DNA from: Candidatus Wolfebacteria bacterium GW2011_GWB1_47_1
GTDB taxonomy: Bacteria; Patescibacteriota; Minisyncoccia; UBA6257; UBA9933
Direction of reading: 5' to 3'
Assembly (NCBI GenBank): GCA_001029635.1
Contig: CP011209.1
Span: 80,983-144,982, forward strand
DNA: 64,000 nt
Translations under genes and position numbers: made by a program
The notes under the pieces: model-generated
What the model was told of the DNA's origin: nothing
What the model saw: only the letters and a program-made list of their open reading frames with translations
The model's database searches: none
Part shown: one piece after another, positions 6,742 to 60,097 of the stretch
Layout of the letters: each line of letters opens with the position of its first letter
Numbering within the stretch: the stretch's first letter is position 1

Positions 6742-6783
6742 CGGTCTACCTCCTTTTCCTTGAGTGATGTCTGGGATCTACGA

Positions 6784-7833: not shown

Positions 7834-7837
7834 TTGT

Positions 7838-8599: not shown

Positions 8600-8724
8600 T
8601 TTACCACCTCCCTATTTTTCTAGATTATAAAAGGCCTTTTGTACTGAAATCGGTATACAACAATTATAGGTTTAAAGCAAGTATTTTACCTAAAAATATC
8701 TATGCCCACACAACCACTGCATTT

Positions 8725-8758
8725 TAAAAAAAGAGCCCCGTAAAGTATAGGGACTCTT
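8725..8758 (-). terminator. probable rho-independent terminator after TPP-enzyme gene
   Basis: Imperfect AAGAGCCCC...GGGACTCTT hairpin followed by T7 on the minus strand. Confidence 0.45.
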
Positions 8759-8766
8759 AAGACAGA

Positions 8767-10566: not shown

Positions 10567-10723
10567 CCCATCCTCCTTTTAGCTTTCGCCTAATGACAAT
10601 CTTGTTATTTTTAGTAATGATTCTGATTCAGCAATACCATAGACTACGGTTTAAAGCAAGGATTTGCCTTAATCAAAATACGGAAGACCATATAAAAAAG
10701 AACGTTTAAATAACGAATGATTT

Positions 10724-10752
10724 AAAAAAGAGGGGCGTATTTCGCCCCCTCT
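10724..10752 (-). terminator. rho-independent terminator after B12-radical SAM gene
   Basis: GAGGGGCG-loop-CGCCCCCTC stem followed by a T-run on the minus strand. Confidence 0.6.
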
Positions 10753-10753
10753 G

Positions 10754-16317: not shown

Positions 16318-16336
16318 ATTCGTATCATTTATATAT

Positions 16337-16365
16337 AATTATCGTATCATTATGATACGATAATT
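16337..16365. promoter_or_regulatory. perfect 14+1+14 bp palindrome AATTATCGTATCAT-T-ATGATACGATAATT immediately upstream of fic start (candidate autoregulatory operator)
   Basis: Seen directly in sequence; additional half-site-like CGTATCAT / TGATACGA copies flank it. Confidence 0.55.
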
Positions 16366-16401
16366 ACAATACTTTGATACGAAAACACGCCCTGGTCTTA
16401 T

Positions 16402-21790: not shown

Positions 21791-21943
21791 AAATAAAAAC
21801 GGGCGTCAAAGACCCCGCATTCCAAAAAAATTACTGAATAAAGTTGTTGTCGATCATCTTCTTCATCTGTCGATAACAAAGTGAAATAGAGAAACGACGC
21901 AAGTGGATACAGTATACCATACTTTTATTTTGTATGCACAAAT

Positions 21944-22737
21944 ATGTACGTCATCTGATGACGTACATACCGGAATATTATTTTTCCAGAAGAACATCAT
22001 ATATTTCTCCAATACTGATATCCTTCACCCATTGATCCAACGCCTGCGCATACCCCTTCTCTCCTCCAAAAAATTCGAGCAGCAATTCTCGCTGTGTAAC
22101 CGATGGAAAGTTTTTCTTTCCTAAATAATCCAAGTGACTCGACCACCGATAATTCTCCAAGTAACTCATCGCATCAGCATGATTATGTACAGCACGCTCT
22201 CGCCACCCATAATCAAACATATCGAGTGGATTTAAGTGAATATAATATGGCAGATGAACAAAATGTGCATGCGCCGTAACTAATATCGACTTATATCTCC
22301 CTTCAAATAGTGTCCCTTTTCGTTCATATCGTTCATTAAAATATCGCGAATACCCCATATTTAATTTCTTCATAAACTTCGAGATGCCACCTTCGATCGC
22401 GGGACTAAGTAATAGATGATAATGATTTGGCATTAAACAGAAAGCATGAATATGAACCAAAAGCTTCCGGGTATGTCCTTCATCTATGGCGATATGTCCT
22501 TCGTCGGCTATTTGCTTGGCTTTTTCGAAAATGCGGTGACTCGTACCAACAGATTCAACGTCATTAAACTCATAAAGGTCATGAATAAATCTAAGATAAT
22601 CAAAAGTATCCTTAAAAATTTCTCGCTTATCGACTCCCCGAGTCAACGCATGATAAAGATCTGCCATATAATACATCGTACTACAATACACGCGCCATCG
22701 CTACATATGTACGTCATCTGATGACGTGCATATGTAG
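21944..22737 (-). mobile_element. IS200/IS605-like element: HUH Y1 transposase (RAYT-like) flanked by palindromic hairpins
   Basis: Flanks are ATGTACGTCATC-T-GATGACGTACAT (21944-21968) and an 18+1+18 version with one mismatch (22701-22737). A third inverted copy is at 22921-22945. Confidence 0.65.
21978..22691 (-). CDS. IS200-like / REP-associated tyrosine transposase (HUH Y1)
   Basis: 237 aa; HUH motif HAFCLMPNHYHLLL and catalytic YRWSS region. Confidence 0.75.
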   Translation of the reverse strand: MYCSTMYYMADLYHALTRGVDKREIFKDTFDYLRFIHDLYEFNDVESVGTSHRIFEKAKQIADEGHIAIDEGHTRKLLVHIHAFCLMPNHYHLLLSPAIEGGISKFMKKLNMGYSRYFNERYERKGTLFEGRYKSILVTAHAHFVHLPYYIHLNPLDMFDYGWRERAVHNHADAMSYLENYRWSSHLDYLGKKNFPSVTQRELLLEFFGGEKGYAQALDQWVKDISIGEIYDVLLEK

Positions 22738-22920
22738 ATGAGAAGCGCCTTCAGAAGCTTTCCTACTCCGCGCTCATAGGTTTATCGTATATGTCATATA
22801 TCATGGCTAATTTGACCCATTTTATGGCATTAAAGGGCACGACAAATACCTTATCACATCGCTTTATATACCTGTTAACTATTTTTCAGTCTAGCATAAG
22901 GGAATCCCACCTGATGCGGA

Positions 22921-22945
22921 ATGTACGTCATCAGATGACGTACAT
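22921..22945. repeat. third copy (inverted orientation) of the RAYT-associated palindrome
   Basis: ATGTACGTCATC-A-GATGACGTACAT. Confidence 0.6.
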
Positions 22946-22960
22946 ATTTTTATAAAACAA

Positions 22961-23387: not shown

Positions 23388-26300
23388 TTATTGTCGTACT
23401 GAGTAGCTCTGGGTTGGGAAGTTATACAAGTTGGCAGCAGTCAATCCAAGTCCGCCTCCTGTTACATCATCCCAAAGGAAATTCGTGGTTCCCTGCACCT
23501 GTGCAGAAACTGCAGCAGTTGCACCTGAAGATACTACGCCGCCAGTGTTGGTTGCGAAGAGGCTAAAGGTCTTCGAGGTTCCCGCCGGGATGGAATATCC
23601 ATCGCTGGTGGTTGCGGTATCACCAAAGTCAACAGTGATGACCGGGGAAGTGGTCGAAGTGGTGGTTGTTGCGGTCGTTCCGCTGATGGTCGTTGAACCA
23701 TCTGCGATGCGAACAGCCGAGAGAGCAGGACCAGTGCTGAATCCTGAGTATCCAATGTTGAATACCAACTTGTTCAGCTTGATGTCACCCTTTGCGTCAG
23801 CAATGACGGTGACTTCTCCGATCTTGTTCTCAGAACCAAGCAACAATCCGCCCTGCTGAGTTCCATTGACGGTCAAGCTCGGCTTAGAAGCAACGAGCTG
23901 CATCGCATTGGAAACAAGCGTGGTGGAAGCTGTGGTCAAAGTAGCAGAAGTGTTTCCACTGGTGTACTTAACAGCAGTAAGCGTGATGGTATCAACCGCA
24001 GCAGACTGCGAAGCGATTCCACCATTCGTGTTAACGTTACCAAAGGTTACGTCAACAGCAATGTTCAATCCAGAAGCACCGGCCGGAACAGCAATGTTCA
24101 AACCAGTTACTACATTACCTGAAGTTGCAGTGATCGTCTTGGTAACTCCACCAACCTTGAGCGCAGTGATTGCGTCGGTTGAAGTAGCTACGTCGAAGGT
24201 CAACTCAGTGATTGTTACCGGAGCAGTTGAAGCCTTTACGTTATAGGTAACGGTCGGCATAACGGTTCCAGAAACAACGAGCTGGCTCGGAGCAGACGAC
24301 GAAAGCTTAGTTACATCAGCCGCTACGAGAGTTGCCGTGTTGGCAGTCATCGAAACGCCAGTTGCAGCTGCGGTCGTCGAAACACCTGAGCTGATTCCGC
24401 GGTATGAAGAAGTTGCGTTCGTAAGAACAGATGCTGTTGAAGAAGCAGAAGCTCCAAGATCAGCAGTAACTTCAAATACCTTGGTCGAATTCATCGGGAC
24501 AACAACATCCATCGTGAAGTTGTTGGCCGCAGTCGGCTGAGCAACGATGGTTGCTGAGTCGGTTACGCGCAAGTTGGAGATGTTCGAAAGAGCCATCTGT
24601 CCTGCGGTAACAACCAAACCAACTGCCATGTTCGTGACTCGGACATCCTCGTAGTTAGAGTTCGAGATCGTGAACGATCCAAGCTTAACATTCGAGTTCG
24701 GAGTAACGGTCTGGCCCAAGAATCCTCCAGTCTTGCTAAAGGAAACAGTAGCAGAACCAATGGTCAAGTTCTTTCCGGTTGCAGAAGCGCTCGTGGCAGT
24801 AGCCTGAGACTGCTGTCCGCGTCCAACAAAGGAGGTTACGTCAACCTGCACAGATCCTGCGGTGTAGTTGTTGCCAGCTCCATCGCGCAAATCTCCGCGC
24901 ACTTCAAGGGTAACAGTTCCAGCTGCCGGGATGATCATGTTTGCGCCCGGAGTGAATGTAAGGGTTCCAGAAGTCCAGTTCTGTGAAGAACCGACTGCTA
25001 CGCCATTTACATACAACGTTGCATTCTGGATCTTAGCACCGGAAACATATCCAGTGAAGGTTCCAGACGGGGTCAAAACCAACGTTTCGATCTTAACATC
25101 TTCTCCGTATGCCTTGAAAGCAAACTTACCAAGGATAACATTTGAAGATCCACCCACTACCTGAGTAGCAGAGTAAGACTGATCCTGGTTAACCGTTACG
25201 GTCCCCTTCTGGATCTGGAAGTTGTAACCATAGACGTTAGCTCCACTGATCGGGGCGATAAACGCACCCATAACCTGTGAATCCTCAATCATATAGTCAG
25301 CCAAGTTCTGTATATAGAACTGAGCAGATCGATCTGAACCCTTTACGAAGTCGCCGCGCAACTCAATAGTGCGGTTGCCAGCAGCCATATTTACCGGAGA
25401 TCCGGAGAAGTCGAAGGCAACAAGGCCATTCGCATTCACAGTCGCAGTAGAACCAACCTTTACACTATCAACAAAGACGGAAAGGTTTGCAACTGAATCA
25501 GATGAAGCAGAACCGACGTACTTGAAGGTGATTCCCTTCAATACAACGGCGCGAGTTCCAATAGTAAAGGTTGAATTCCAAACGCTCTGGTTAACTGCAC
25601 CAGCATCTACGTTCAAGTTGGTGTTCCCTTGGCTGTTGGTCTGCAAGGTTACAGTAGCCAATGAAGCGGCCGAGATCTGCATCGTATTACCCTTTACGCC
25701 GGTAACTGCAGTTGCAGTTCCACCGCTCATGGTGTACGAAACAACTTCGATCGCAACAGTGGTCTGGCTTGTTGTAGCTGTCGAAGGAACATCTCCTCGG
25801 ATCTCGATAGCCTTTGGAGAAGTGAACAATCCAGACGGATTGTTGAAGGTGATCATGCCTTCTGCATTGATGGAAGCTGCATCAGAGATGCGGGTATTTC
25901 CATCGTACAAGTAGACATTAGTCAACACATCATTGGTCGAAAGACCAGTGCGGCGGAGCTGCAAGTTGGTAACTGCACCGGTTCCTGAGAACTGGAGAGA
26001 AACCATACGAGCGGCTGCCTGTCCTGCTACGATGTATCCTGCTGCCGGGTTATTGGAAGCGAGAGATACCGGACCGGTTGCGGTCGGAGTAGTAGGAGTA
26101 GTAGGAGTAGTCGGAGTGGTCGGAGTGGTCGGAGTTGTGCTCGTCATCATTCCGTTTACTTTGCCGCGAGTCAACGCGCCAAAGTATCCAACTGCTGGGG
26201 AAATGCCGTTAGCTGCCTGGAACTTTGCCAAAGCTGCTTTAGTTGCATTACCGAAGTAAGCGGTCGGGGTTGCGAGAACCAGGTGTCCTTGTGCAACAAG

Positions 26301-26552
26301 GAACTTCTGGAGCTCAGTGACATCTGCTCCACGTGAACCAACAGTGAGGTTGCGGGTAAACGTGTACGACGATGTCATTGTCGTTGCCGGAGTTCCGGAC
26401 AACTGAGTGTTGAGGGCATTGATCTGGGCCATCAAGGCTGCGATCTGTGCCTGCAACTCTTCAGTCGTCGCGGCCGAAGCCGGAGCTGCTACGCCTGCCA
26501 ACAAGGCAAACGAGAGCACAACGATGGAAAGTTTTTTAAATACTTTACTCAT
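23388..26552 (-). CDS. large secreted S-layer-like surface protein with N-terminal coiled coil, peptidoglycan-binding domain (PG_binding_1-like) and (TP)n linker, then long beta-rich Thr/Ser/Gly/Val region
   Basis: 1054 aa; signal peptide MSKVFKKLSIVVLSFALLAGVAAPASA; GSRGADVTELQKFLVAQGHL...FGNATKAALAKFQAANGIS matches the PG-binding-domain consensus; TTPTTPTTPTTPTTPTTPT linker. Confidence 0.6.
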   Translation of the reverse strand: MSKVFKKLSIVVLSFALLAGVAAPASAATTEELQAQIAALMAQINALNTQLSGTPATTMTSSYTFTRNLTVGSRGADVTELQKFLVAQGHLVLATPTAYFGNATKAALAKFQAANGISPAVGYFGALTRGKVNGMMTSTTPTTPTTPTTPTTPTTPTATGPVSLASNNPAAGYIVAGQAAARMVSLQFSGTGAVTNLQLRRTGLSTNDVLTNVYLYDGNTRISDAASINAEGMITFNNPSGLFTSPKAIEIRGDVPSTATTSQTTVAIEVVSYTMSGGTATAVTGVKGNTMQISAASLATVTLQTNSQGNTNLNVDAGAVNQSVWNSTFTIGTRAVVLKGITFKYVGSASSDSVANLSVFVDSVKVGSTATVNANGLVAFDFSGSPVNMAAGNRTIELRGDFVKGSDRSAQFYIQNLADYMIEDSQVMGAFIAPISGANVYGYNFQIQKGTVTVNQDQSYSATQVVGGSSNVILGKFAFKAYGEDVKIETLVLTPSGTFTGYVSGAKIQNATLYVNGVAVGSSQNWTSGTLTFTPGANMIIPAAGTVTLEVRGDLRDGAGNNYTAGSVQVDVTSFVGRGQQSQATATSASATGKNLTIGSATVSFSKTGGFLGQTVTPNSNVKLGSFTISNSNYEDVRVTNMAVGLVVTAGQMALSNISNLRVTDSATIVAQPTAANNFTMDVVVPMNSTKVFEVTADLGASASSTASVLTNATSSYRGISSGVSTTAAATGVSMTANTATLVAADVTKLSSSAPSQLVVSGTVMPTVTYNVKASTAPVTITELTFDVATSTDAITALKVGGVTKTITATSGNVVTGLNIAVPAGASGLNIAVDVTFGNVNTNGGIASQSAAVDTITLTAVKYTSGNTSATLTTASTTLVSNAMQLVASKPSLTVNGTQQGGLLLGSENKIGEVTVIADAKGDIKLNKLVFNIGYSGFSTGPALSAVRIADGSTTISGTTATTTTSTTSPVITVDFGDTATTSDGYSIPAGTSKTFSLFATNTGGVVSSGATAAVSAQVQGTTNFLWDDVTGGGLGLTAANLYNFPTQSYSVRQ
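26084..26140. repeat. hexanucleotide tandem repeat (GGAGTA / GTCGGA units) encoding the (Thr-Pro)n linker
   Basis: tcggagtagtaggagtagtaggagtagtcggagtggtcggagtggtcggagt read directly. Confidence 0.6.
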
Positions 26553-31226: not shown

Positions 31227-31688
31227 TTATTCAAACCTTACTTTCACCTTCTTCATCTTTTGCTTATTCACCTTAGGCAAGGTGATGCGCAAGACGCCGT
31301 TTTTAAATGTGGCAGTCGAATGATCCGGGTTGATCTCCTGCGGAAGGATGATCGAACGGGAAAACTTACCCCAATAGCACTCCTGATACAGATAGTCGTT
31401 ATCTTCAACCTTTTCACGCTGTTCGCGCTTACCCCGAATGGCGACGGATTCCGGTGATATTTCCAGATCCAGGTCATCAATGCCTACGCCCGCGACAGGT
31501 GCTTCAATAATGATGTCATTCCCCGCCTGATACACATCAATGGCGAGCTGCCCCTCCCCTTCCTCAAAATCATCAGATTCGTCATCGTCCGATTCTATTT
31601 CATCAACTTTGGCCAATTTCGGTTCAAATTCTTCCTGCTCGGTTGCACCCGCGAGCTTCTCGAAGAATTTCTTGGTGTCATTGTTCAT
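31227..31688 (-). CDS. Hsp20 / alpha-crystallin-family small heat-shock protein
   Basis: 153 aa; ...ATFKNGVLRITLPKV C-terminal alpha-crystallin signature. Confidence 0.8.
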   Translation of the reverse strand: MNNDTKKFFEKLAGATEQEEFEPKLAKVDEIESDDDESDDFEEGEGQLAIDVYQAGNDIIIEAPVAGVGIDDLDLEISPESVAIRGKREQREKVEDNDYLYQECYWGKFSRSIILPQEINPDHSTATFKNGVLRITLPKVNKQKMKKVKVRFE

Positions 31689-35025: not shown

Positions 35026-35052
35026 AGTTGTTTATCTGAAACTATTAGTTTA

Positions 35053-35087
35053 GGGTGTCATTCCCATAGAGGCGAGAATGGCACCCT
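35053..35087. repeat. hairpin of GTCATTCC family (GGGTGTCATTC-loop-GAATGGCACCC)
   Basis: 11-bp stem with 1 mismatch; shares the GTCATTC/GAATG core. Confidence 0.4.
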
Positions 35088-35120
35088 CCCTTTCCGTATT
35101 TCGTATTTCTTTTTTCGCAC

Positions 35121-37271: not shown

Positions 37272-38087
37272 TTATTCTAAGGGACTTTTAATGTTCTTCA
37301 ACATCGGGTTTGTCACTTTCGTATATATTTGCGTCGTCCTAATGTTAGCATGACCGAGTAATTCTTGCACATAGCGCACATCGACACCATTTTCCAATAA
37401 GTGTGTAGCAAAGCTGTGACGCAAAGAATGGAATGTCGCATCTTTTTGAATTCCCGCATTTTGTAATGCGCTTTCAAAAACCTTTTGTGCGGTCCGCTCA
37501 GTTAATTTTCCGCCACGTTCGCTCGCAAGTAAATATTCATTAAAATCACGCCCCGCTATCAATTTACTTATACCATTATTTAATATTTCCGGGAATACCG
37601 TAATGCGATCCTTATTTCCTTTTGCACCCTTGATATGGATTGTTAGCTCTGCCAAGTTTATGTCTTTGATCTTCATATTGACAACCTCACTAACTCGCAA
37701 TCCTCCGGCATAAGCCAATGAAACCATCAGGTTATGTTTTTCATTAGCAATGCCATCTAATAGCGATTGAATTTCGGAGCGGGACAGCACTACTGGCAAT
37801 TTGCTCGGTGTCTTGGCAAAACGGATATCTATTTTTCCGCGATAATTCAACACATTCCAGTAGAAGAAATTGATGGCCTGCAAAGCTTGGTTGGTTGTTT
37901 GTGAAGATTTACCGGCATCTACCTTAGACAGCAGATATGTTTTAATAAAATCCACATCGACTAAATTGAGATTCTCGCCTTTTGCGCGTAAATAGTCGGC
38001 AACACACACACGATAACTCTTGATCGTTTTAGGGCTATAATTCCGCAGCCGCAATTCGTCCTCCAGCTTTTTTAAATAGACGTCCAT
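37272..38087 (-). CDS. tyrosine site-specific recombinase, XerC/XerD-like (phage integrase family)
   Basis: 271 aa; C-terminal catalytic region HSLRHSFATHLLENGVDVRYVQELLGHANIRTTQIYTKV (R...HxxR...Y). Confidence 0.8.
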   Translation of the reverse strand: MDVYLKKLEDELRLRNYSPKTIKSYRVCVADYLRAKGENLNLVDVDFIKTYLLSKVDAGKSSQTTNQALQAINFFYWNVLNYRGKIDIRFAKTPSKLPVVLSRSEIQSLLDGIANEKHNLMVSLAYAGGLRVSEVVNMKIKDINLAELTIHIKGAKGNKDRITVFPEILNNGISKLIAGRDFNEYLLASERGGKLTERTAQKVFESALQNAGIQKDATFHSLRHSFATHLLENGVDVRYVQELLGHANIRTTQIYTKVTNPMLKNIKSPLE

Positions 38088-38192
38088 ATAGACATGGTAT
38101 ATAATAATGAAGGTGTGTTCAAATTATATGTGATATTCGCCTAGTCAGCAATATTGAGTAGCATATACGAAAACACTTCGCATATAAATGAG

Positions 38193-38367
38193 TTACGCAA
38201 AATGTCGTTCGGCTTCACTCCATTTTTCGTAACGTGGAGCTTTGCGAGGGTTGGGCTTCCTCTCTTCCCTATCGGGACAAGTAAACAAGCCTCGCACCAC
38301 ATCGCCTAACAACCGCTTGGCGGCGTCCGCCCAAATCCCGCTCCGCGGGACTTCGCAAAGCTCCACG
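38193..38367 (+). repeat. 175-nt structured repeat, copy 1 (with a diverged ~28-nt 5' extension from 38166)
   Basis: 100% identical to copies 2 and 3. Contains a 12-bp hairpin (TTACGCAAAATG...CATTTTTCGTAA), a 15-bp closing stem (CGTGGAGCTTTGCGA...TCGCAAAGCTCCACG) enclosing ~106 nt with small GC hairpins (GGCGG-CGT-CCGCC; CCCGC-TCC-GCGGG), and an internal GCCTAAC. Confidence 0.8.
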
Positions 38368-38523
38368 TTCAACGAAATAAATTTTTTATCTTGGTGAAAA
38401 TTTAAAGTTTTGTGAGATAAATGGGGACAGAAAATTTGATTTTTTATTAATTTAAAGAGGGGGATACGGAGTTTTTCTGCTCTTTGGGGAGCAGAAAAAA
38501 TTAATTCATTTATAATCAAAAAT

Positions 38524-39135
38524 ATGCTCGAAAAACCTTACATTCCATCGCAAGCTGAAATGGAAAAAGCTGAAACAATGGCAGCTGATTATCAAAAAAC
38601 ACCCGAACAAGTCAAGGAGGATGAAGAAAAAAAAGACAAAAACAATGAGGCTCTAATTTCAGATTTAGCTGGAATAGAGATTTACGGCTCTAATTCAGTG
38701 AGTGAGCAGATAAAACAAAATTATGCTGAAATGGCAATTAAAGTCATCACTGATATAAATAAAAGCGCAGGAAAAAAATTATCATGGACTTTTAGGTTAT
38801 TTGGACCGAAATCAGATAAGGATATGAAATTCAAAATGGAGGAAACATTGAATAATATGGCAGCAGCTTTACGTCTTGAGCATGAGAAGGCAGCAAACGA
38901 GGTGGGCCTAATTCGCAAGAGAGGCGATAATACAGAAATGGATAAATTTATTGCGGAAAGAGAACTAGAAAGAAAAGGCCTCTTGAAAAGTTTAAAGGAA
39001 GGATATGCCGATTTTGTATTAAATAAAGACGAAGGAACAATTCAGATAGGTATGACATCGGATGGCTATAAACTTAAATCTGGAGAATTAATGAATTTTG
39101 ATGAAATAACAAAATACATCAGAGAGAATATGTAA
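38524..39135 (+). CDS. hypothetical Lys/Glu-rich protein (cassette ORF between repeat copies 1 and 2)
   Basis: 203 aa. Confidence 0.4.
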   Translation: MLEKPYIPSQAEMEKAETMAADYQKTPEQVKEDEEKKDKNNEALISDLAGIEIYGSNSVSEQIKQNYAEMAIKVITDINKSAGKKLSWTFRLFGPKSDKDMKFKMEETLNNMAAALRLEHEKAANEVGLIRKRGDNTEMDKFIAERELERKGLLKSLKEGYADFVLNKDEGTIQIGMTSDGYKLKSGELMNFDEITKYIRENM

Positions 39136-39388
39136 TGCCGATGAGGAGTTTTGAAAAATGAAATTCACCCCTAGCCCCTCTTTCATTTTTCAAAAGAAAA
39201 AATCAAATTTTCTTATACGATAAACTAATGTATAATGAATTTAATAACGAGATAAAAAATTGACATCGTCGAACAACTCATATCTGGCTCAAGAAATTGA
39301 CACTTTAATGTTTCAGATGAAAGCCAATTTCTTTCGACCCAAATTTTTTCGCAATTGCATTGCGCAAAAACTTCAGATATAAGTAACG

Positions 39389-39563
39389 TTACGCAAAATG
39401 TCGTTCGGCTTCACTCCATTTTTCGTAACGTGGAGCTTTGCGAGGGTTGGGCTTCCTCTCTTCCCTATCGGGACAAGTAAACAAGCCTCGCACCACATCG
39501 CCTAACAACCGCTTGGCGGCGTCCGCCCAAATCCCGCTCCGCGGGACTTCGCAAAGCTCCACG
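39389..39563 (+). repeat. 175-nt structured repeat, copy 2
   Basis: Identical core; 5' flank GTAACG shared with copy 3; 3' junction ...CCACG|TTGGAC. Confidence 0.8.
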
Positions 39564-39683
39564 TTGGACGAAATGCCATAAGGAAATTAGGGGGATGGCA
39601 CATCGTCCAACACTGTGTATCTGGTTTCATGAAAAGGGATTCAACAAATAATCTTTTACAATTCAAAATGCCATTTTTTGGGA

Positions 39684-39716
39684 TAAAAAAATCCGCCAAT
39701 CTTTCGAGAGGCGGAG
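39684..39716 (-). terminator. rho-independent terminator after small cassette ORF
   Basis: TCCGCC-loop-GGCGGA hairpin followed by T7 on the minus strand. Confidence 0.5.
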
Positions 39717-39743
39717 GATGTGTTGTTTGCTGATTTATTATGT

Positions 39744-39941
39744 TCAGCTCATATTTTTCTTGACGACCTCGAGATTGCTTTCGAGCAGCTCTTCCTTGAC
39801 GTCGTCGTCGATGTCATCCCATGCGTTGTCCAATCCTCTGCGGCCTGTCAGATCGCCGAGGATAGCAAACAGAATTTTTTTTGCCGGTTCGGTCGGCTTG
39901 GTTGTGTAGCGCTCCTGAAACTCCTCAAGTAACGTTGTCAT
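39744..39941 (-). CDS. small acidic hypothetical protein (65 aa; cassette ORF between repeat copies 2 and 3)
   Basis: ATG at 39941 preceded by GAGGAGG (6-nt spacer); MTTLLEEFQERYTTKPTEPAKKILFAILGDLTGRRGLDNAWDDIDDDVKEELLESNLEVVKKNMS. ORF-track 118-aa version is probably over-extended. Confidence 0.45.
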   Translation of the reverse strand: MTTLLEEFQERYTTKPTEPAKKILFAILGDLTGRRGLDNAWDDIDDDVKEELLESNLEVVKKNMS

Positions 39942-40171
39942 AAAGTCCTCCTCATGATTTTGATATATTATCCAAATGTTGTTGAATAATATATTATGAT
40001 AGCACATTATTCGTTGTATGTCAAATATAGAGGAGTAAAAATTCCAAAAATGGCTCAAGTTAAGGAAATTATTTGTTGAATTCCTTTTCATTCCACCCAA
40101 ATTTTTGCTTCTTTTATCTATTTGAACTAATATTGAGGAAGCGAAGCAAAAACTTCAGATACACAGTAACG

Positions 40172-40346
40172 TTACGCAAAATGTCGTTCGGCTTCACTCC
40201 ATTTTTCGTAACGTGGAGCTTTGCGAGGGTTGGGCTTCCTCTCTTCCCTATCGGGACAAGTAAACAAGCCTCGCACCACATCGCCTAACAACCGCTTGGC
40301 GGCGTCCGCCCAAATCCCGCTCCGCGGGACTTCGCAAAGCTCCACG
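40172..40346 (+). repeat. 175-nt structured repeat, copy 3
   Basis: Identical core; 3' junction ...CCACG|CTATGCGAAGACGTTGTAC differs from copies 1 and 2. Confidence 0.8.
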
Positions 40347-40392
40347 CTATGCGAAGACGTTGTACGAAATTACTTCTTTATTAGGTACTATA

Positions 40393-40467: not shown

Positions 40468-43002
40468 TCATTCTCCCATATTCACGAACCGCACCTCCTC
40501 GCCTTCGAGCGTTAGGTGTAAATGACTCCCCTTTCGCACCTCCCCCCGCAAGATCATCTCGGCAAGCTCACTCTTGATGCGATCGTTGATCACGGTGCGT
40601 AGCGGACGGGCGCCGAATACCGGATCATAGCCAACGTTCGCCAAATGTTCCACGACGGCATTGTCGATCTCCATCGCGATGCCTTGTTCTTCGCCGAGCG
40701 TCTTTGCCAACTTTTGTATCTGCATGCGCGCAATGGCGATTGTGTCGTCGACCGACAGATTCTTGAATATGATCACATCGGAAAAACGATTCAATAATTC
40801 AGGACGGAAATATCCAGTCAATTTCTTCTTAAATTCATCCTTAATATCTTCAATATTACGCCCCGCCTCGATAGATTCCTTAATGAAATCGGAATTTGCG
40901 TTGGACGTTGCGATGACGATAGTGTTCTGGAAATCAACCACGCGCCCCACGTTGTCGGTGATGCGCCCATCGTCGAGTACCTGCAGGAAAAGATTCAATA
41001 CGTCCGGATGCGCCTTTTCGAATTCATCCAATAGAATTAGGCTATACGGCTTCTGAATCACCGACTCGGTAAGCGTGCCGCTCATCTTGCCGTCAGGGGT
41101 TCCGATAAATCGAAAGATGCTTTGCTTGTCCTGATATTCGGACATATCGAAGCGGAGCAGCAGCTGGTCAGACCCAAACTGCGTCTTTGCCAAAATCTTT
41201 GCAAGCTCCGTCTTACCGACGCCCGTAGGCCCAACAAAGAGAAATGTGGCAATCGGCCCGTTGGATCGGGCAAGTCCGCTGCGATACTGACGCAATGCGC
41301 GTGCGACTGCGGTGACCGCCTGTTCCTGGTCGATCAGATTCTGATGAATAATATCCTCGAGATTGAGTAGTTTCTCTGCTTCCTCCTTGGTCGTCTTATG
41401 GATCGGGATATTGATCTTCCGCTCGGCAACGGCGATGACGATCTCATCGGTAAGCATCTTTTCTCCCCGCTGGGTTGCGTCGGCAAGTGCCTCTTTAAGC
41501 AGATCTTCCGCACTCGCGGGAAGAAGCTTTTGTTTAAAATATTTATGAGCGATCGAAACGGCGGCTTTAATGGCTTCAAAGCTGATGACGACGTTGTATT
41601 GCCGTTCCAGGATGATGCCGGAATAGATCAAGACACGAATGGAATCATCCTCAGAAAGCTCTTCGACGCGAACCACTTCAAATGCATTGAGAAAATCGGT
41701 ATGCGGTTCGATCTCGGTCTTCATTTCCTTTGCATAAGAAGACCCGATAACCTGAAACGCATCACTGGCAATGGCCGGCAACATAAGCGTGGCCACATCC
41801 ATATACCCTTCCCCCGACGTCTTGAATAGATTATGAATATCGGGGATATAGAGGATGATATTCTTTGCCGCAATGATCTCCCGAACGACGGTATTGACCC
41901 GAGTAGAAATTTCTTCAGGCCCCGCGCCGGAAACAAGTTCTCCAATAGAAAGCGCAACAAGCCGCTTATCGAATAGCTCCTCAGGAACTTTGTCTTTGAC
42001 GATATTAAATGCCAAATGGCTGACGATGGTCTCTTTTCCACTTCCCGGATCGCCCACTAAAAGAACATTCTGCTTTGCGGCGCGAGAAAGAACATTAACA
42101 ATTGTTCCATATTCCTGTTCGTGGCCAATCAAAAACCCGACACGCTGTTCGCGAGCAAGATCGGTCAGGTCGTCGCTAAACATATCCAATGTCGGCGTAA
42201 CGCGCGCAGTCCACGCACGATTCATAATACGATGTCGCCCTCCTTTGCGACCAAACCCGCCAAGCGTGGAAGGGATAGTCTTGAGCCACGCAAATCGCTG
42301 TCGATAACGGCTAAAGATGAGTGCCTTTTGTAGATCATTTGTATCAAGCGAGAAGAGATAGAACACGCGCCGCACGGCGGCATCGTCAACCGTACCCAAT
42401 GCGGAAAAAAGATCATTGAGAGCAATATACTTTCCCCCGTTGTCATAGGCATCCATGAATGCGACCTTCACCAATATATGAATGCGCGAAAGCAGTTCGT
42501 CATGAGCATAAAGGTTCGTATTTTTGTACTTCTCGACTTCTTCATCAATCTTATGCTCAAACTCCTCCGGAGAAATCTCAAGCCGCCACAAAGCGCCACG
42601 AATGCCGTCATCCCGAATAAGCGTCTTCATGAGATGCAAATAATAGTTACCCCCGGCGATCGCGGTTTTATCAAGCGCACGGATAATTACGCGGAAACTC
42701 TTTGGTAAAAGATATTGGGTAATATTAACTCCTTCGATCTCATCTGCCTTCAGATCGGTGATCGCATGCAATGGAGTGTTAATATGTAAGGCTCGGTCGA
42801 TCAGCACCAGGGTGCACAAGATGCCGAACCAATACAACCATTCGATATCGGACAATACCGCAAGGATAGTGCCTACGGTGAATATGGCATAAAACGCATA
42901 CGTGATCAGCCCCCATAAGAAGCGCAATGATGCGGAGAATTCGAGACGCGGATCAGAGAAGGTGAGTTTTTCAACGGGAAAGTTCGTGTTCATACCAATC
43001 AA
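40468..43002 (-). CDS. Clp/Hsp100-family AAA+ ATPase (ClpA/ClpB/ClpC-like) with N-terminal transmembrane region instead of Clp_N
   Basis: 844 aa; D1 Walker A is GDPGSGKE (non-canonical), D2 GPTGVGKT canonical; N-terminal ~60 aa hydrophobic. ORF-track start is TTG; ATG (MNTNFPV) at 42993 is an alternative. Confidence 0.7.
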   Translation of the reverse strand: MIGMNTNFPVEKLTFSDPRLEFSASLRFLWGLITYAFYAIFTVGTILAVLSDIEWLYWFGILCTLVLIDRALHINTPLHAITDLKADEIEGVNITQYLLPKSFRVIIRALDKTAIAGGNYYLHLMKTLIRDDGIRGALWRLEISPEEFEHKIDEEVEKYKNTNLYAHDELLSRIHILVKVAFMDAYDNGGKYIALNDLFSALGTVDDAAVRRVFYLFSLDTNDLQKALIFSRYRQRFAWLKTIPSTLGGFGRKGGRHRIMNRAWTARVTPTLDMFSDDLTDLAREQRVGFLIGHEQEYGTIVNVLSRAAKQNVLLVGDPGSGKETIVSHLAFNIVKDKVPEELFDKRLVALSIGELVSGAGPEEISTRVNTVVREIIAAKNIILYIPDIHNLFKTSGEGYMDVATLMLPAIASDAFQVIGSSYAKEMKTEIEPHTDFLNAFEVVRVEELSEDDSIRVLIYSGIILERQYNVVISFEAIKAAVSIAHKYFKQKLLPASAEDLLKEALADATQRGEKMLTDEIVIAVAERKINIPIHKTTKEEAEKLLNLEDIIHQNLIDQEQAVTAVARALRQYRSGLARSNGPIATFLFVGPTGVGKTELAKILAKTQFGSDQLLLRFDMSEYQDKQSIFRFIGTPDGKMSGTLTESVIQKPYSLILLDEFEKAHPDVLNLFLQVLDDGRITDNVGRVVDFQNTIVIATSNANSDFIKESIEAGRNIEDIKDEFKKKLTGYFRPELLNRFSDVIIFKNLSVDDTIAIARMQIQKLAKTLGEEQGIAMEIDNAVVEHLANVGYDPVFGARPLRTVINDRIKSELAEMILRGEVRKGSHLHLTLEGEEVRFVNMGE

Positions 43003-50529: not shown

Positions 50530-50609
50530 GTTTTGAGTGGTGAGGTATAGGGCACGAAAAATGCAATTGTACTCAACACCTTACCTCTTACCTCAATCTC
50601 TAATATCTT

Positions 50610-53294: not shown

Positions 53295-53381
53295 ATGTAA
53301 ATAAATTTCTAATTTTTAACTTCTAAAAAATACGAATTTTAACATGCGCTCTTAGAAATTCGTAATTAGTAAATTCGCTAT

Positions 53382-55434: not shown

Positions 55435-56454
55435 TCATGCCTTCGGCGCAGGAATCGGACACTTTGCAATGCCCTTTCCAAGAAACTCCTGAATGTTGCA
55501 AATATCCGTATCAAGAATGCGCTGCAATGCCTCCTGCGTATTGAACGCATTGTGCGGCGTAACGAGCACATTCGGCATATCGATCAGAACATGATTTTCA
55601 AGAACGGTCTTGAGATTATGCTCCTCTGGATGTCCATAGAGCACAAGGGTTTTTTCATCAGCAAGAACACCTTCTTCTTCGAGCACGTCGAGTCCCGCTC
55701 CACCGAGGATGCCATCAGCCAAACCTTTTACCAACGCGTCCGTTTCGACAACCGCCCCCCGAGCAGTATTGATAAGCAACGCGCCCTTCTTGATCTTGGT
55801 AAGGCTATCCATATTGATCAAATGGTGCGTAGAAGGAAGATACGGCACATGGATCGTGATCACGTCGGATCGTCCCAAGAGATCATCGAGCCCAACATAT
55901 TCGAACCCGAGCTCGGTGGCAAGCTCAGCCTTAGGGAACGCATCAAACGCAATGACCTGCATACCAAATCCTTTTGCGATACGGATCACGTGCTGACCGA
56001 TACGGCCGGTCCCCATAACTCCAATGGTCTTGCCCTGCAAATCAAATCCGCGCAAGCCAACATAGGAATACACGCCTGTTTCACGCAAGCGATCGACAGA
56101 ATCGTAGATCTTACGGGAGAGCGCAAGAATGAGCCCAAAGGCAAATTCAGCGACCGTATTATCGCCATATCCCGGAACATACCCGGTGGCAATATTCATG
56201 CTTTGCGCCATAGGCAGATCGACATGATCGAATCCGGTCGAACGAGTCGTGACCAATTTAAGATTTGGCAATGCGGCAAGCACCGCTTGATCAATTTTTG
56301 AACCGACGAATACGGAAACAATGTCAAAATCGCGCTGCTCCGGGAGCGCCTCCGCGGAAAGCTTTTCCTTACTGAAAAACAATTCGTGACCGGCGAGCTG
56401 TTCTTTAATGTGCTCGATTTCCCAGTCTTCGATCTGAAAGAATGCTATTTTCAT
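55435..56454 (-). CDS. D-isomer-specific 2-hydroxyacid dehydrogenase (D-lactate / glycerate dehydrogenase-like)
   Basis: 339 aa; GVMGTGRIGQHV NAD motif and catalytic His region VTPHNAF. Confidence 0.75.
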   Translation of the reverse strand: MKIAFFQIEDWEIEHIKEQLAGHELFFSKEKLSAEALPEQRDFDIVSVFVGSKIDQAVLAALPNLKLVTTRSTGFDHVDLPMAQSMNIATGYVPGYGDNTVAEFAFGLILALSRKIYDSVDRLRETGVYSYVGLRGFDLQGKTIGVMGTGRIGQHVIRIAKGFGMQVIAFDAFPKAELATELGFEYVGLDDLLGRSDVITIHVPYLPSTHHLINMDSLTKIKKGALLINTARGAVVETDALVKGLADGILGGAGLDVLEEEGVLADEKTLVLYGHPEEHNLKTVLENHVLIDMPNVLVTPHNAFNTQEALQRILDTDICNIQEFLGKGIAKCPIPAPKA

Positions 56455-56737
56455 ATAACCCTAGTATATCAAAAGAAATAAGCATCCGCTATCGCATAAT
56501 ACTTCTCCTGCGAGCATGTAAAAACGACGATCAAATAGATGAAATGAATTTCCCCAGAAACCGAAGGTCGGGGTCCCGGTCAGCCAGGCGGGCGATCCTT
56601 CGGTTTCGTAAGAAATTCATGAGCCTATTAGTCGTTTTTACTCCGCTCGCGAATTTTTTGGTACTTTTTTAGGAAAAAAGTACAGAAAAATAAGCTCTAA
56701 ACTTCGCGCTCCGCTGGACATAGCCTTTGGCCATGTG

Positions 56738-56771
56738 CAACCGGAAAATACAAAGGAGCGCAATGCGCTCA
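56738..56771 (-). terminator. probable terminator after clpP
   Basis: GAGCGC-AAT-GCGCTC hairpin followed by CTTTGTATTTT on the minus strand. Confidence 0.5.
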
Positions 56772-56787
56772 TTTGTATTTTCCACTA

Positions 56788-57375
56788 TTATTTCTTACTC
56801 GCTTTAAACACCTCATCGATCAATCCATACTCCTTCGCCTCGGTGGCCGAAAGATAGAAGTCCCGATCAGAATCCTTTTCGACTCGATTGAGTGGCTGTC
56901 CGGTCGCCTTGGAAAGGAATTGATTCAACTTCTCCTTCGTTTTCAAAATATGCTTTGCATTGATTTCGATATCAGAAGCCTGGCCCTCGAATCCACCCAT
57001 GACCTGATGCAACATCACTTCGGAATTCGGGAGTGCAAAACGCTTTCCTTTCTTTCCTCCGGCAAGCAATACGGCACCCATCGAAGCAGCGATGCCGACA
57101 CAAATGGTCGACACCTCCGGCTTGATATAGTTCATGGTGTCCAAGATGGCGAGCCCGGCAGTCACCGATCCGCCCGGCGTATTCAGGTACAATTGGATAT
57201 CCTTTTTCGGATCTTCATGCGCCAAGAACAACAGCTGTGCAATGACCGTATTGGCAACGTTATCATCGATCACACCTCCCAAAAAAATAATGCGATCGCG
57301 CAGTAGACGGGAATAAATATCATACGCCCGCTCGCCATAGGTACTCTTTTCAATTACGGTTGGAATTAAATTCAT
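56788..57375 (-). CDS. clpP: ATP-dependent Clp protease proteolytic subunit
   Basis: 195 aa; GIAASMGA catalytic Ser, LHQ His. Confidence 0.85.
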
Positions 57376-57457
57376 GCTGCGAGAAAAATGAAATATGAAA
57401 TATGAAAAATGAATGAATGCATTTTTCCCTATTCCTTTTTTCCTTTTTCATGTTGCG
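57376..57457 (-). promoter_or_regulatory. ~80-bp leader/promoter module with tandem heptad direct repeats (TCATATT x3-4), copy 1 upstream of clpP
   Basis: Minus strand: ATGAAAAAGGAAAAAAGGAATAGGGAAAAATGCATTCATTCATTTTTCATATTTCATATTTCATTTTTCTCGCAGC-ATG; about 90% identical to 57986-58072. Confidence 0.5.
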
Positions 57458-57985
57458 TTATTCGTGCTTATACGCCTCTTGAGACTTCTTGATTTCTGTA
57501 ATGGCTGATTCCTTTCCTTCCCATCCCTTGATCTCAACCTCCTTACCCTGTAAGTCCTTGTATACCTTGAAGAAATGCGCAATCTCCTTCAAAAGATGTG
57601 GGTTGTGCAACTCGACATCGCTTAAATCCTTGATCGAATCAAAGCGAGGATTTTTTGCTTGTACACCCAAGATCTTTGCGTCTGGATCCCCCGAATCAAT
57701 CATATGGAACACGCCGATCGGACGCATCTCGACGACACACCCGGTAAATACCGGATCGCTACCGATGATAAGTGCGTCCAAATGATCGCCATCCTCAGAG
57801 CGGGTCTGCGGAATGAATCCGTAGTCAAGCGGATAATGCATCGGGGAATACAATACGCGATCTAATTTAAATACGCCCGTTTCCTCGTCATACTCATACT
57901 TGTTATGGCTCCCTTTCGGAATCTCCACGACAACATTTACAACTTCAGGGGCCTTCTTTCCCACTCCTAATGCTTCAAAATCCAT
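57458..57985 (-). CDS. ppa: inorganic pyrophosphatase (family I)
   Basis: 175 aa; EIPKGSHNKYEYD...DGDHLDALI...HMIDSGDPDAKIL motifs. Confidence 0.85.
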   Translation of the reverse strand: MDFEALGVGKKAPEVVNVVVEIPKGSHNKYEYDEETGVFKLDRVLYSPMHYPLDYGFIPQTRSEDGDHLDALIIGSDPVFTGCVVEMRPIGVFHMIDSGDPDAKILGVQAKNPRFDSIKDLSDVELHNPHLLKEIAHFFKVYKDLQGKEVEIKGWEGKESAITEIKKSQEAYKHE

Positions 57986-58072
57986 ATTGCAAGAAAAATG
58001 GAATATGAAATATGAAAAATGAATAAATGCACTTTTCCCTATTCCTTTTTTCCTTTTTCATATTTCGATTTG
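57986..58072 (-). promoter_or_regulatory. ~80-bp leader/promoter module, copy 2, upstream of ppa
   Basis: Near-identical to 57376-57457. Confidence 0.5.
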
Positions 58073-59326
58073 TTATTCGTTTTCAGTTATCGGTTCTGAG
58101 ATGTTACTTGCCGGTTCTTCTCCAAAATCAACGACACCTTCATCTTCTGCCTGCCCGTACACACCACCCGAATGGGCTGCGTCCGGATGCGCCTGAGAAC
58201 GGATATCGATCTTCCATCCGGTCAATCGGGCCGCAAGTCGCGCATTCTGCCCGTCTTTTCCGATAGCAAGACTGAGTTGGTCTTCAGGAACAATAACCTT
58301 CGCTTCGCGACGATCATGCACCTCGACACTGGTAACCTTTGCCGGAGAAAGTGCCGCGGAAATAAACTGTCCCGGATCTTCGTGCCACTGGATAATATCG
58401 ATCTTTTCATTACCCAGTTCATTAGTAACAGTCATAACACGTGTTCCGCGCTGTCCAACACATGCTCCAATCGGATCAATTCCTTCTTCCTTGCTATACA
58501 CGGCGATCTTCGTGCGGCTTCCCGGCTCTCGTGCGATGGATTTAATTTCCACCAGCCCTTCGGCAATCTCAGGAACCTCCAACTCAAACAACTTGCCAAC
58601 AAACTTCGGATGCGATCGGGACAAGATGATCCCCGGTCGTTTGCCCTCTTCATCCTGTACGGCAACAACGTAGAAGCGCATGCGCTCACCTATATTATAT
58701 CGTTCGCCACGAATGACTTCGTTGTAGAACATAACGCCCATAGCGCGCCCAAGGTCGATAAACGTATTTCCACGCTCAACGCGCTGAATAATACCACTCA
58801 CGATTTCTCCTTCTTTGCCCTGATATTCCTTGCGTACGGAATCACGCTCAGCTTCGCGGATCTTCTGTAGCACAACCTGTTTTGCGGTCTGTGCAGCGAT
58901 ACGTCCAAAGTCTTGCTTTTCTTCCAAAGGGAACGAAAGTTCATCCCCCAATTCAGCGTCCTTTTTAATCTGTTTTGCCTCCTCAATCATAATATGACGA
59001 TCGGGATTGTAGCGCGGAAGTAAGTCTTCTTCGTCTTCAAGCTCAATAATTGGCTCTTTTTCTACCGCAACTTCACCTTCGACAAGCTCCTCTTCTTCTA
59101 TGATGCGCACGGTTGATTCATCGACGACAGTTTTTGTCTTCCAGAATGTAAATGTCCCGGCATCCGTATCAATCTTCGCGTGCACGATCTCTCCCTTTTC
59201 GCAATATTCCTTTTTATACGCGGCAGCAAGAGCCGATTCAACGGCTGATAGTATCTGATCTTCCGGGAGGGCTTTTTCCTCAGAAATCTGCTTGATTGCG
59301 TAATTTAATGATTTTAAATCTAACAT
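58073..59326 (-). CDS. nusA: transcription termination/antitermination factor NusA
   Basis: 417 aa; N-terminal domain, S1 domain, two KH domains. Confidence 0.85.
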   Translation of the reverse strand: MLDLKSLNYAIKQISEEKALPEDQILSAVESALAAAYKKEYCEKGEIVHAKIDTDAGTFTFWKTKTVVDESTVRIIEEEELVEGEVAVEKEPIIELEDEEDLLPRYNPDRHIMIEEAKQIKKDAELGDELSFPLEEKQDFGRIAAQTAKQVVLQKIREAERDSVRKEYQGKEGEIVSGIIQRVERGNTFIDLGRAMGVMFYNEVIRGERYNIGERMRFYVVAVQDEEGKRPGIILSRSHPKFVGKLFELEVPEIAEGLVEIKSIAREPGSRTKIAVYSKEEGIDPIGACVGQRGTRVMTVTNELGNEKIDIIQWHEDPGQFISAALSPAKVTSVEVHDRREAKVIVPEDQLSLAIGKDGQNARLAARLTGWKIDIRSQAHPDAAHSGGVYGQAEDEGVVDFGEEPASNISEPITENE

Positions 59327-59454
59327 ATGTTGTTTTTATTTAGTTGTTTATTAAATTGTCCAACCACAAACAGTTACACCATCCCGAAATGTTCCAATTC
59401 CGTTGTTGGTCGTGAGTTGTTTATTGTTGGTTAGTATTAGTATACGACGATTGT

Positions 59455-59486
59455 ATAAAATAGAAAATCCGCACAAGTGCGGAATT
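59455..59486 (-). terminator. probable terminator
   Basis: TCCGCAC-AAG-TGCGGA hairpin followed by TTTCTATTTT on the minus strand. Confidence 0.4.
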
Positions 59487-59563
59487 TCTACTAAGAATAT
59501 AAACAACAATAGGAATGCTGTCAATAGGCAAAGAATTAGCAGATTAAACGCTCTTCTTTATGG

Positions 59564-60097
59564 TTACTTAATAGCCTTTACTCCTTTAGGCTCAGGAATT
59601 ACATATATATCCAAAAATGCAACAGGGCTATCAGTAGAAATATCGGTGCCAACCGTCTCGTAGCGGGCAAGATACGTCAAGGCAGGATCAATAATAGTAA
59701 GATCGTTAGACCGCAGCTCTTCGATCACAGGAGCCTTCCCGGCGACAGTGGTTATCTTCGTAATCTTAGTATTCCCGTCTATGCGCACGGCGTGTACCTC
59801 AGCATCTGAAGCGTGCACCGTTTCATATGCCGGGATATCCTGCGTAGACTGATGTCCTTTAAGATCGAGAATTTTTACCGAACCATCCATTCGAAGAACG
59901 GAGGTGGTGGGTTTTCCGATAAATCCGCGGGTAACGAGATTTGGAGCTTCGGGAGAACCTCCAACGACGATCGGCATACTATCAGACTGATTCGATCGGA
60001 CCAAGAGAAAAACAGCCATTCCTAACGCAACAAGTCCGACGAGACCGGTTGCAATCACTCCACCCGTAACCAATTTGTTTATTTTTGATTGTTCCAT
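59564..60097 (-). CDS. small N-terminally membrane-anchored protein (module A, gene 1)
   Basis: 177 aa; MEQSKINKLVTGGVIATGLVGLVALGMAVFLL TM; paralog of 62904-63404. Confidence 0.4.
   Translation of the reverse strand: MEQSKINKLVTGGVIATGLVGLVALGMAVFLLVRSNQSDSMPIVVGGSPEAPNLVTRGFIGKPTTSVLRMDGSVKILDLKGHQSTQDIPAYETVHASDAEVHAVRIDGNTKITKITTVAGKAPVIEELRSNDLTIIDPALTYLARYETVGTDISTDSPVAFLDIYVIPEPKGVKAIK

Follow-up and report, generated by a model that had tools for sequence, protein, structure and literature searches.

The two intergenic spacers on either side of ppa, the inorganic pyrophosphatase gene of Candidatus Wolfebacteria bacterium GW2011_GWB1_47_1, are a repeat-element phenomenon and serve as neither operator nor promoter nor leader-peptide gene. 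The sequence analysed was a stretch of 64,000 nt from contig CP011209.1 (positions 80,983 to 144,982 of the forward strand; hereafter the window, to whose first letter all coordinates refer unless a related locus is named), in which nusA, ppa and clpP are arranged head to tail on the minus strand and in which an earlier note, made from the letters alone, had described a heptad-bearing module of about 80 bp duplicated upstream of clpP and ppa. The duplication proved to be real and well located, whilst only part of the interpretation placed upon it found support. Very probably the two spacers are paralogous heptad-repeat quasi-palindromes that belong to a lineage-wide, multi-family class of 7-nt-periodic elements reaching from one gene's stop codon to the start codon of the next. 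For the whole package, comprising this identity, an origin at the DNA level and a role of the hairpin in translational coupling, we estimate a probability of about 0.5, and the coupling role on its own we hold as a tentative idea that falls somewhat short of even odds.

Two paralogous quasi-palindromes flank ppa

Copy 1 (57376..57457, minus strand) is the entire 82-nt spacer from the stop of ppa to the start of clpP, and copy 2 (57986..58072, minus strand) is the entire 87-nt spacer between the nusA stop codon and the ppa start codon, so that ppa (57458..57985), the second gene, has a copy on each side, with nusA (58073..59326; Pfam domains NusA_N and KH_NusA) upstream and clpP (56788..57375) downstream. 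The similarity of about 90% claimed for the two spacers was borne out at 90% identity across 90 nt without gaps (repeat family D4), although the title of the earlier note had called the copies identical; when the two copies were aligned, mean column identity was 91% with a single 5-nt indel. Similarity sets in within the final codons of the gene upstream (ACGAATAA) and extends into the ATGRATTT of the downstream gene. Copies 1 and 2 scored 97.7 and 84.3 bits respectively against the covariance model. A 29-mer from the 5′ part of the module and the 32-mer heptad run each matched only the two spacers when up to three mismatches were allowed, with zero matches expected from shuffled sequence, and no third copy of the cassette was found in the ~67 kb of the source genome that were searched (~7% of the total). 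The further copies that the earlier note had proposed to look for were thus absent from this sequence.

The tandem heptads that had been described immediately before the two start codons were recovered by Tandem Repeats Finder as period-7 arrays of 4.4 and 5.1 units, and autocorrelation at lag 7 was 0.60 in copy 1 and in copy 2. For both ppa and clpP the array stops 6 nt short of the ATG. Each spacer as a whole is an imperfect inverted repeat in which a purine-rich heptad arm pairs with a T-rich heptad arm, giving a predicted A·U-rich hairpin of ~30 bp that spans the distance from stop codon to start codon. In copy 1 the purine-rich 5′ arm ATGAAAAAGGAAAAAAGGAATAGGGAAAAATG, with a period of ~7 (57420..57451, minus strand), is followed by an 8-nt loop CATTCATT (57412..57419, minus strand) and by the 3′ arm CATTTTT CATATTT CATATTT CATTTTT CT (57382..57411, minus strand), which is the heptad run of the earlier note. 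The 5′ arm of copy 2 (58030..58061, minus strand) differs from that of copy 1 solely by an A-to-G change near the loop, which reads CATTTATT (58022..58029, minus strand), and its 3′ heptad arm (57992..58021, minus strand) lies 6 nt from the ppa ATG.

The predicted RNA folds have free energies of -16.5 kcal/mol for copy 1 (z ~-3.5) and -17.1 kcal/mol for copy 2 (z ~-3.0). A·T pairs predominate in their stems, whose top helix has ~2 G·C pairs, and the stems do not show the G+C-rich stem followed by a T run that marks an intrinsic terminator. At the Rfam gathering score only tRNAs passed in the window and the spacers matched no family; in E-value mode they matched only microRNA-precursor models, on either strand, with scores of 17-20 bits that fell far short of the threshold. 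We take these matches to say no more than that the spacers are generic long hairpins.

Spacer turnover at the same junctions in related bacteria

Related loci, 11 in number, were taken via Ppa homologues of 73-96% identity (Paceibacteria; individual loci carry L numbers below). The order nusA-ppa-clpP is retained in every related locus that extends far enough, and the spacers fall into two length classes. The short class, of 26-32 nt and unstructured, is found between nusA and ppa in L015, L140, L144 and L146 and between ppa and clpP in L016 and L146. The hairpin class measures 72-94 nt, with in addition one 144-nt composite between ppa and clpP in L019, and between the hairpin base and the neighbouring codons there are 0-16 nt on the stop side and 2-15 nt on the start side. 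L020 and L021 lie outside both classes, having between nusA and ppa a spacer of 172 nt with a G+C-rich hairpin.

From one species to another, the hairpins at a given junction mostly show no sequence relationship. The flanks of L016 and L017 are 98.2-99.1% identical, and yet their ppa-clpP spacer has been swapped exactly from stop to start, L016 having 26 nt (4523..4548 of its locus) and L017 an 85-nt heptad hairpin (4523..4607), with no similarity between the two; the replaced spacer has neither a target-site duplication nor a shared flank within it. In the distant L146 (Ppa identity 73%) the two spacers measure 26 and 28 nt, and 20.5 kb of its sequence contained no segment with a heptad period. 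Probably, then, the short spacer is the ancestral state and the hairpins characterise a subclade. The junction of yebC and ruvC occurs in three states in close relatives: an ATGA overlap (L140, ~494), an intrinsic terminator with a TATAAT placed 6 nt before the ATG (L015, 97..148), and, in the source species, a 69-nt heptad hairpin followed by a TTG start. Contigs with identical ClpP and Ppa were also present in assemblies from NCBI, JGI and ENA, and these same-species assemblies were 100% identical over 12.8-17.2 kb (one 99.9%), so that invariance of the element among them says nothing on constraint.

A 7-nt period shared by several families of hairpin

The heptad period is not confined to the two copies around ppa. 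Across 20 hairpin spacers of all sequence types the mean autocorrelation was 0.49 at lag 7 and 0.44 at lag 14, compared with a mean of 0.25 at lag 7 in 14 control spacers (other co-directional spacers from the window); the best lag was 7 or 14 in all but one of the 20, and no control had a peak at lag 7.

Local alignment, with a null 99th percentile of 24, grouped the hairpins into families. Family A, with units TTCATAW/TTCATWT, comprises both window copies together with spacers of L015, L020, L139 (two spacers), L144 and L143. Family B, with units CGTAATY/ATTCGCA, is found in L142 (two spacers), between ppa and clpP in L143, and between yebC and ruvC in the source species, where it fills 69 nt, ~2.6 kb past the window end, on a contig of the same species (L004, 721..789). 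Family C, with ATTAGAA units, occupies the nusA-ppa spacer of L016/L017, three spacers of L019 and the spacer between gapdh and rpiB in the window, which is filled by an 87-nt hairpin (53295..53381, minus strand; z -4.1). TCTTATC units make up the ppa-clpP hairpin of L017, and an 80-nt hairpin of CTTACCT heptads fills the spacer between the RNase J gene and trpS (50530..50609, plus strand). The ~67 kb of the source genome yielded five heptad hairpins, representing at least four types of sequence. The same families recur at different junctions in different genomes, and both sides of ppa carry the same family in L142 as they do in the window, with a weaker version of this pattern in L019 and L139. 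The earlier suggestion of a portable module was therefore well founded, in that the module has been copied across ppa, a near-identical family-A copy stands upstream of ppa in L143, another species (covariance model 52 bits, E ~4e-8; alignment 71-85), and sister families stand at other junctions.

Wider searches with short probes added little. The 19-mer AAAAAAGGAATAGGGAAAA matched at least 117 loci in metagenome contigs, almost all of them chance or coding matches (KKGIGK), and among the matches listed the only true copy was L060, which is the same locus. The 21-mer GGAAAAAAGGAATAGGGAAAA gave two unrelated chance matches only in a representative set of genome contigs, and a scan of viral contigs gave none. 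A literature search on hairpins of Parcubacteria and on leaderless translation in the Candidate Phyla Radiation (CPR) returned nothing specific.

Seven family-A sequences were aligned. Their consensus is a hairpin of 15 pairs in which 93% of cells are paired, against 34-52% in slid controls; changes on both sides of the stem, i.e. compensatory changes, were seen in a third of the pairs (5/15), and the covariation score was reached by none of 500 shuffles. This pairing and covariation indicate that the palindrome is maintained. The paired changes would also be explicable by processes acting on DNA, e.g. template switching within quasi-palindromes.

Two further spacers of the window are structured and fit the heptad class imperfectly. 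One (35026..35120, minus strand) has GAAATAC about three times and then a G+C-rich hairpin. The other (16318..16401, minus strand) contains GTAATTATCGTATCAT/ATGATACGATAATTAT, a 16-bp palindrome that is close to perfect (z -6.9) and that could act as an operator for the Fic-domain gene downstream of it.

Probable operon layout and translation signals

A sigma-70-like promoter, TTGACA-17-TATATT, matches the consensus at 11 of 12 positions 5′ of nusA (59496..59524, minus strand) and is the sole good one in 56400..59700; relatives show the same promoter arrangement upstream of nusA. An intrinsic terminator with a G+C-rich core (56756..56770) and a T run lies 3′ of clpP (56743..56783, minus strand). 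The consensus scan of 56400..59700 found no promoter-like and no terminator-like site inside either spacer, and the earlier idea of a promoter within the module found no support, the only good sigma-70-like site being that 5′ of nusA. With one promoter 5′ of nusA, one terminator 3′ of clpP and none of either in the spacers, nusA-ppa-clpP would most simply be a single co-transcribed operon.

Two structures at the ends of this gene group may be mentioned. Between the promoter and nusA lies a conserved leader hairpin with a U tract (59468..59483, minus strand), TAGAAATTCCGCACTTGTGCGGATTTTCTATTTTATAC, within the nusA leader (59327..59524, minus strand); it is near-identical in L015, L016/L017 and L019, is not found in the distant L146, and could be a NusA autoregulatory attenuator. 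Beyond the clpP terminator, inside a 333-nt spacer, there is a 150-nt rod-like hairpin (56505..56655, minus strand; -68.4 kcal/mol, z -7.8) that has no Rfam family and could be a small RNA or an inserted palindromic element; the counterpart spacer in L020 is just 95 nt long.

Both ppa and clpP lack a Shine-Dalgarno (SD) sequence, as the earlier note had said. Its accompanying statement that most genes here use AGGAGG was wrong: applying a rule of at least four consecutive bases of AGGAGGT ending 4-13 nt 5′ of the start, we found an SD in just five of 58 candidate genes, and 13 genes with a TANNNT box ending 6-10 nt before the ATG looked leaderless, both counts being approximate in that genes were called crudely as the longest open reading frame (ORF). 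The absence of an SD is the norm in this genome and no peculiarity of ppa and clpP.

All five SD-bearing genes lie in one cluster (5959..12406, minus strand) that encodes an HpcH-like aldolase, two radical-SAM enzymes, a HAD (haloacid dehalogenase) hydrolase and a thiamine pyrophosphate enzyme, and this cluster may be foreign or differently expressed. Outside it many genes have a TATAAT 6-9 nt before the ATG and look leaderless.

Proposed origin and role of the elements

In our proposal the element, laid out as an array of 7-nt units, a short loop and an inverted array that together occupy the whole spacer between co-directional genes, would owe its origin to events in the DNA, namely slippage by 7-nt units, inverted duplication or a switch of template. 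Its spread would have come about through gene conversion among spacers or local copying from one to another, to which the common GAATAA...ATGRATTT flanks may have contributed. As part of the operon mRNA, read from the one promoter 5′ of nusA, it would form a hairpin of ~30 bp that loops out ~70 nt, leaving the stop codon and the next start codon no more than ~20 unpaired nt apart, a distance similar to that in relatives with spacers of 26-32 nt, and the SD-less ppa and clpP could then be translated by coupling or re-initiation. Because looping-out would keep stop and start close together, such a hairpin would be tolerated at these junctions and possibly mildly useful there. A coupling role of this kind would fit the bimodal spacer lengths, the want of an SD or a -10 box before the downstream genes and the three-state yebC-ruvC junction; the module may have a part in SD-independent translation, which the earlier note had raised under the name of a translation enhancer. 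If our proposal is true, clpP and ppa share the cassette through local copying and not through a shared regulator. The natural variants found at one junction in close relatives (overlap, ~30-nt spacer, terminator plus leaderless promoter, heptad hairpin) could serve as a comparative series on translational coupling.

Several points weigh against this proposal. The hairpins are dispensable, since L016 (26 nt) and the distant L146 (26 and 28 nt) do without them. Sense and antisense strands fold equally well, with no strand asymmetry, and among 19 hairpins mismatches of the G·U type (38) do not differ significantly in number from those of the A·C type (35; p = 0.82); with neither asymmetry present, there is no sign of selection acting on the RNA. 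Operon, fold and coupling have each been deduced from sequence, plain looping-out leaves the 7-nt period of every family unexplained, and re-initiation across the base of a hairpin is no established bacterial mechanism. The search, moreover, covered only ~67 kb, or ~7%, of the genome.

Alternative explanations

The alternative that survives best, which we nevertheless regard as unlikely, is a selected element of mRNA processing or stability, in which the hairpin serves as the substrate of a double-strand-specific or structure-dependent RNase, or as a protective 3′ stem, and thereby segments the transcript and sets the levels of the three products. Hairpins of the repetitive extragenic palindromic (REP) and Correia types act in this way. 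Stable hairpins do stand exactly between the cistrons, their structure is retained while the sequence turns over, the window has an RNase J gene, and transcript stabilisation has been proposed for the hairpins of short tandemly repeated repetitive (STRR) elements (PMC2670836). Against it, G·U mismatches are not in excess over A·C mismatches; the hairpin is unneeded in L016 and L146, and this explanation too leaves the 7-nt period without a cause.

Rather improbable, and a little more so than RNA processing, is that in these CPR bacteria the heptad hairpins are a dedicated device for expressing the internal genes of operons without an SD, one that works by ribosome transfer across the hairpin base (an analogue of shunting or of termination-reinitiation) and/or by ribosome loading through an RNA reader that moves in 7-nt steps (a cold-shock-domain or S1-like protein). 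Were this so, the 7-nt period would be functional and not a signature of slippage.

Lower again in our estimation comes the idea that the heptads are sites for a protein with a 7-nt register that co-regulates ppa and clpP, acting on RNA (cold-shock-domain or S1-like) or on DNA (a CtsR-like repressor, or one of the omega/ribbon-helix-helix type). The binding sites of the omega repressor are arrays of 7-bp heptads, some direct and some inverted. A 7-nt period is the single feature common to all families and only a binder of this sort explains it; the arrays end 2-15 nt before SD-less starts, and the same idea has been put forward for TAACTGA repeats (PMC4679880). Yet there are at least four unrelated heptads in one genome, swapped at a single junction between close relatives, and a sequence-specific binder would have to change each time; for a repressor acting on DNA, moreover, the spacers contain no promoter to block. 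The earlier note had likened the heptads to CtsR-type operators and suggested a shared regulator as one possibility, a reading that fared poorly. Searching for RGTCAAA-NAN-RGTCAAA gave five matches at three mismatches against 6.2 expected by chance, none of them in the spacers, no CIRCE (controlling inverted repeat of chaperone expression) element was found, and no CtsR- or HrcA-like Pfam domain was present in the 50 window ORFs scanned. Within the window the covariance model, even when run without filters, found no copy of the cassette upstream of the other clp and hsp genes, namely hsp20 (31227..31688) and the ClpB/C-like ATPase gene (40468..43002), and the unrelated sequences that relatives carry at the same junctions also count against a CtsR-type regulon.

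We think it very improbable that each spacer has an internal promoter in which CATATT or CATAAT within the heptads acts as a -10 box and ppa and clpP are transcribed separately with very short leaders. The heptads do hold -10-like hexamers, in which the second base is A and the sixth T, in a genome with many leaderless-looking genes preceded by TATAAT at 6-9 nt from the ATG, but the consensus scan detects no promoter-like site in the spacers, a -35 box is lacking, the distance from the end of the -10-like hexamer to the ATG is 16 nt and not 6-9 nt, the CGTAAT, ATTAGAA and CTTACCT families lack such hexamers altogether, and no terminator stands ahead of the spacers. Scarcely credible, finally, is a leader peptide controlling the downstream gene: the ATG-led ORF reported at the 5′ end of the module is indeed present in both window copies (33 and 28 codons, overlapping the downstream start), but family-A elements of four other species either lack it or have an ORF of another position, frame, length and peptide, five of the seven differences within it alter the amino acid, and neither an SD nor a promoter precedes it.

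Three further candidates were tried and rejected. Integron attC sites, which came into question as structured sites that lie between cassettes, are not indicated, as no RYYYAAC/GTTRRRY cores were seen by eye and the flanking genes are core housekeeping genes; an RNA thermometer of the fourU or ROSE type would find no SD that it could mask, and the stem does not include the AUG; and RNase III cleavage to give leaderless mRNAs is a weak candidate, cuts in the stem leaving leaders of at least 10 nt.

Comparison with known repeat systems

Operators and intergenic palindromes of several kinds invite comparison. The CtsR operator of Gram-positive clp genes is a direct heptad repeat, A/GGTCAAA-NAN-A/GGTCAAA, that overlaps the promoter. 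Tandem heptads upstream of clpP are the likeness here, but the consensus is absent, no promoter overlaps, the palindrome also precedes ppa, and relatives have unrelated replacements. Omega repressor arrays of pSM19035 lie at promoters or centromere sites and have one consensus, WATCACW; they resemble the present elements in their contiguous 7-bp units, direct and inverted, and differ in that here there is no promoter and there are many unit sequences. REP elements and bacterial interspersed mosaic elements (BIME), enterobacterial repetitive intergenic consensus (ERIC) sequences and Correia elements, or Neisseria miniature insertion sequences (NEMIS), are short imperfect intergenic palindromes that occur in operons, are co-transcribed and fold as RNA; they can influence how stable an mRNA is or how it is processed, and they are gained or lost between strains. 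The elements described here are likewise intergenic palindromes that vary between strains and that would be transcribed; those families, however, have many near-identical copies, and the miniature inverted-repeat transposable elements (MITEs) among them have target-site duplications, whereas here there are two copies in ~67 kb, no target duplication and exact replacement from stop to start (L016/L017), and a 7-nt periodicity is no feature of them.

The closest known kinds are the STRR and TAACTGA repeats, with 7-nt units, an intergenic position, a hairpin and an SD-less start next to it all found in the present elements. The heptad units of this genome (TTCATWT/TTCATAA, CGTAATY, ATTAGAA and CTTACCT) include no TAACTGA and are presumably not among the cyanobacterial STRR consensus units either. 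Cyanobacterial STRRs are usually 7-bp repeats, form hairpins between the co-transcribed hupS and hupL and have no known function, with transcript stability or translational coupling having been proposed (PMC2670836). Tandem 7-bp units in an intergenic, hairpin-capable arrangement between genes that are co-transcribed (here on our reading of the operon) are common to both systems, whereas the elements reported here occur in CPR/Paceibacteria with unrelated unit sequences, their arrays are short (3-5 degenerate units), and they always have an inverted partner and fill the spacer from stop to start.

TAACTGA heptamers form direct repeats in marine Beggiatoaceae and in some Cyanobacteria and Bacteroidetes (MacGregor 2015, PMC4679880). 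In Beggiatoaceae they lie a few nt upstream of SD-less starts, with S1, Csp or CsrA-type binders having been proposed, and the system has 169 direct sets and one indirect repeat (PMC4679880); heptanucleotide repeats are reported to be the commonest long simple-repeat class in many bacteria (cited in PMC4679880). Both systems have tandem heptamers ending a few nt before SD-less starts, in SD-poor genomes and at housekeeping genes without a functional theme, but TAACTGA is one dominant heptamer in mostly direct arrays, whereas here there are several families, each with an inverted hairpin partner. STRR-like heptamer hairpins, which had been described chiefly in cyanobacteria and a few further groups, occur also in housekeeping stop-to-start junctions of small, largely SD-less CPR genomes.

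Other repeats in the window

Repeats of other kinds were also seen. A Y1/IS200-like transposase gene (21978..22691, minus strand) has around it, at 21942, 22705 and 22919, three copies of ATATGTACGTCATCTGATGACGTACATA, a perfect palindrome of 28 nt, which are unrelated to the heptad elements, and the region 21942..22946 as a whole looks like an IS200/IS605-like unit or one of the REP-associated tyrosine transposase (RAYT) type. Three copies of a 191-nt repeat, 96-98% identical, occur in 38186..40355, a low-GC stretch (0.39-0.41) adjoined by a tyrosine integrase gene (37272..38087), and a mobile element has probably integrated here. Four copies of the short hairpin repeat GTCATTCCCGCGAAGGCGGGAATC, with 63-100% identity, are present at gene ends (1402, 3469, 21598 and 47107) and have the look of a family of REP-like or terminator-like kind. 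The 9-nt unit GTCGGAGTA, repeated in tandem with 5.9 copies at 26083..26135, is an in-frame coding repeat of a 1054-aa ORF (23388..26552).

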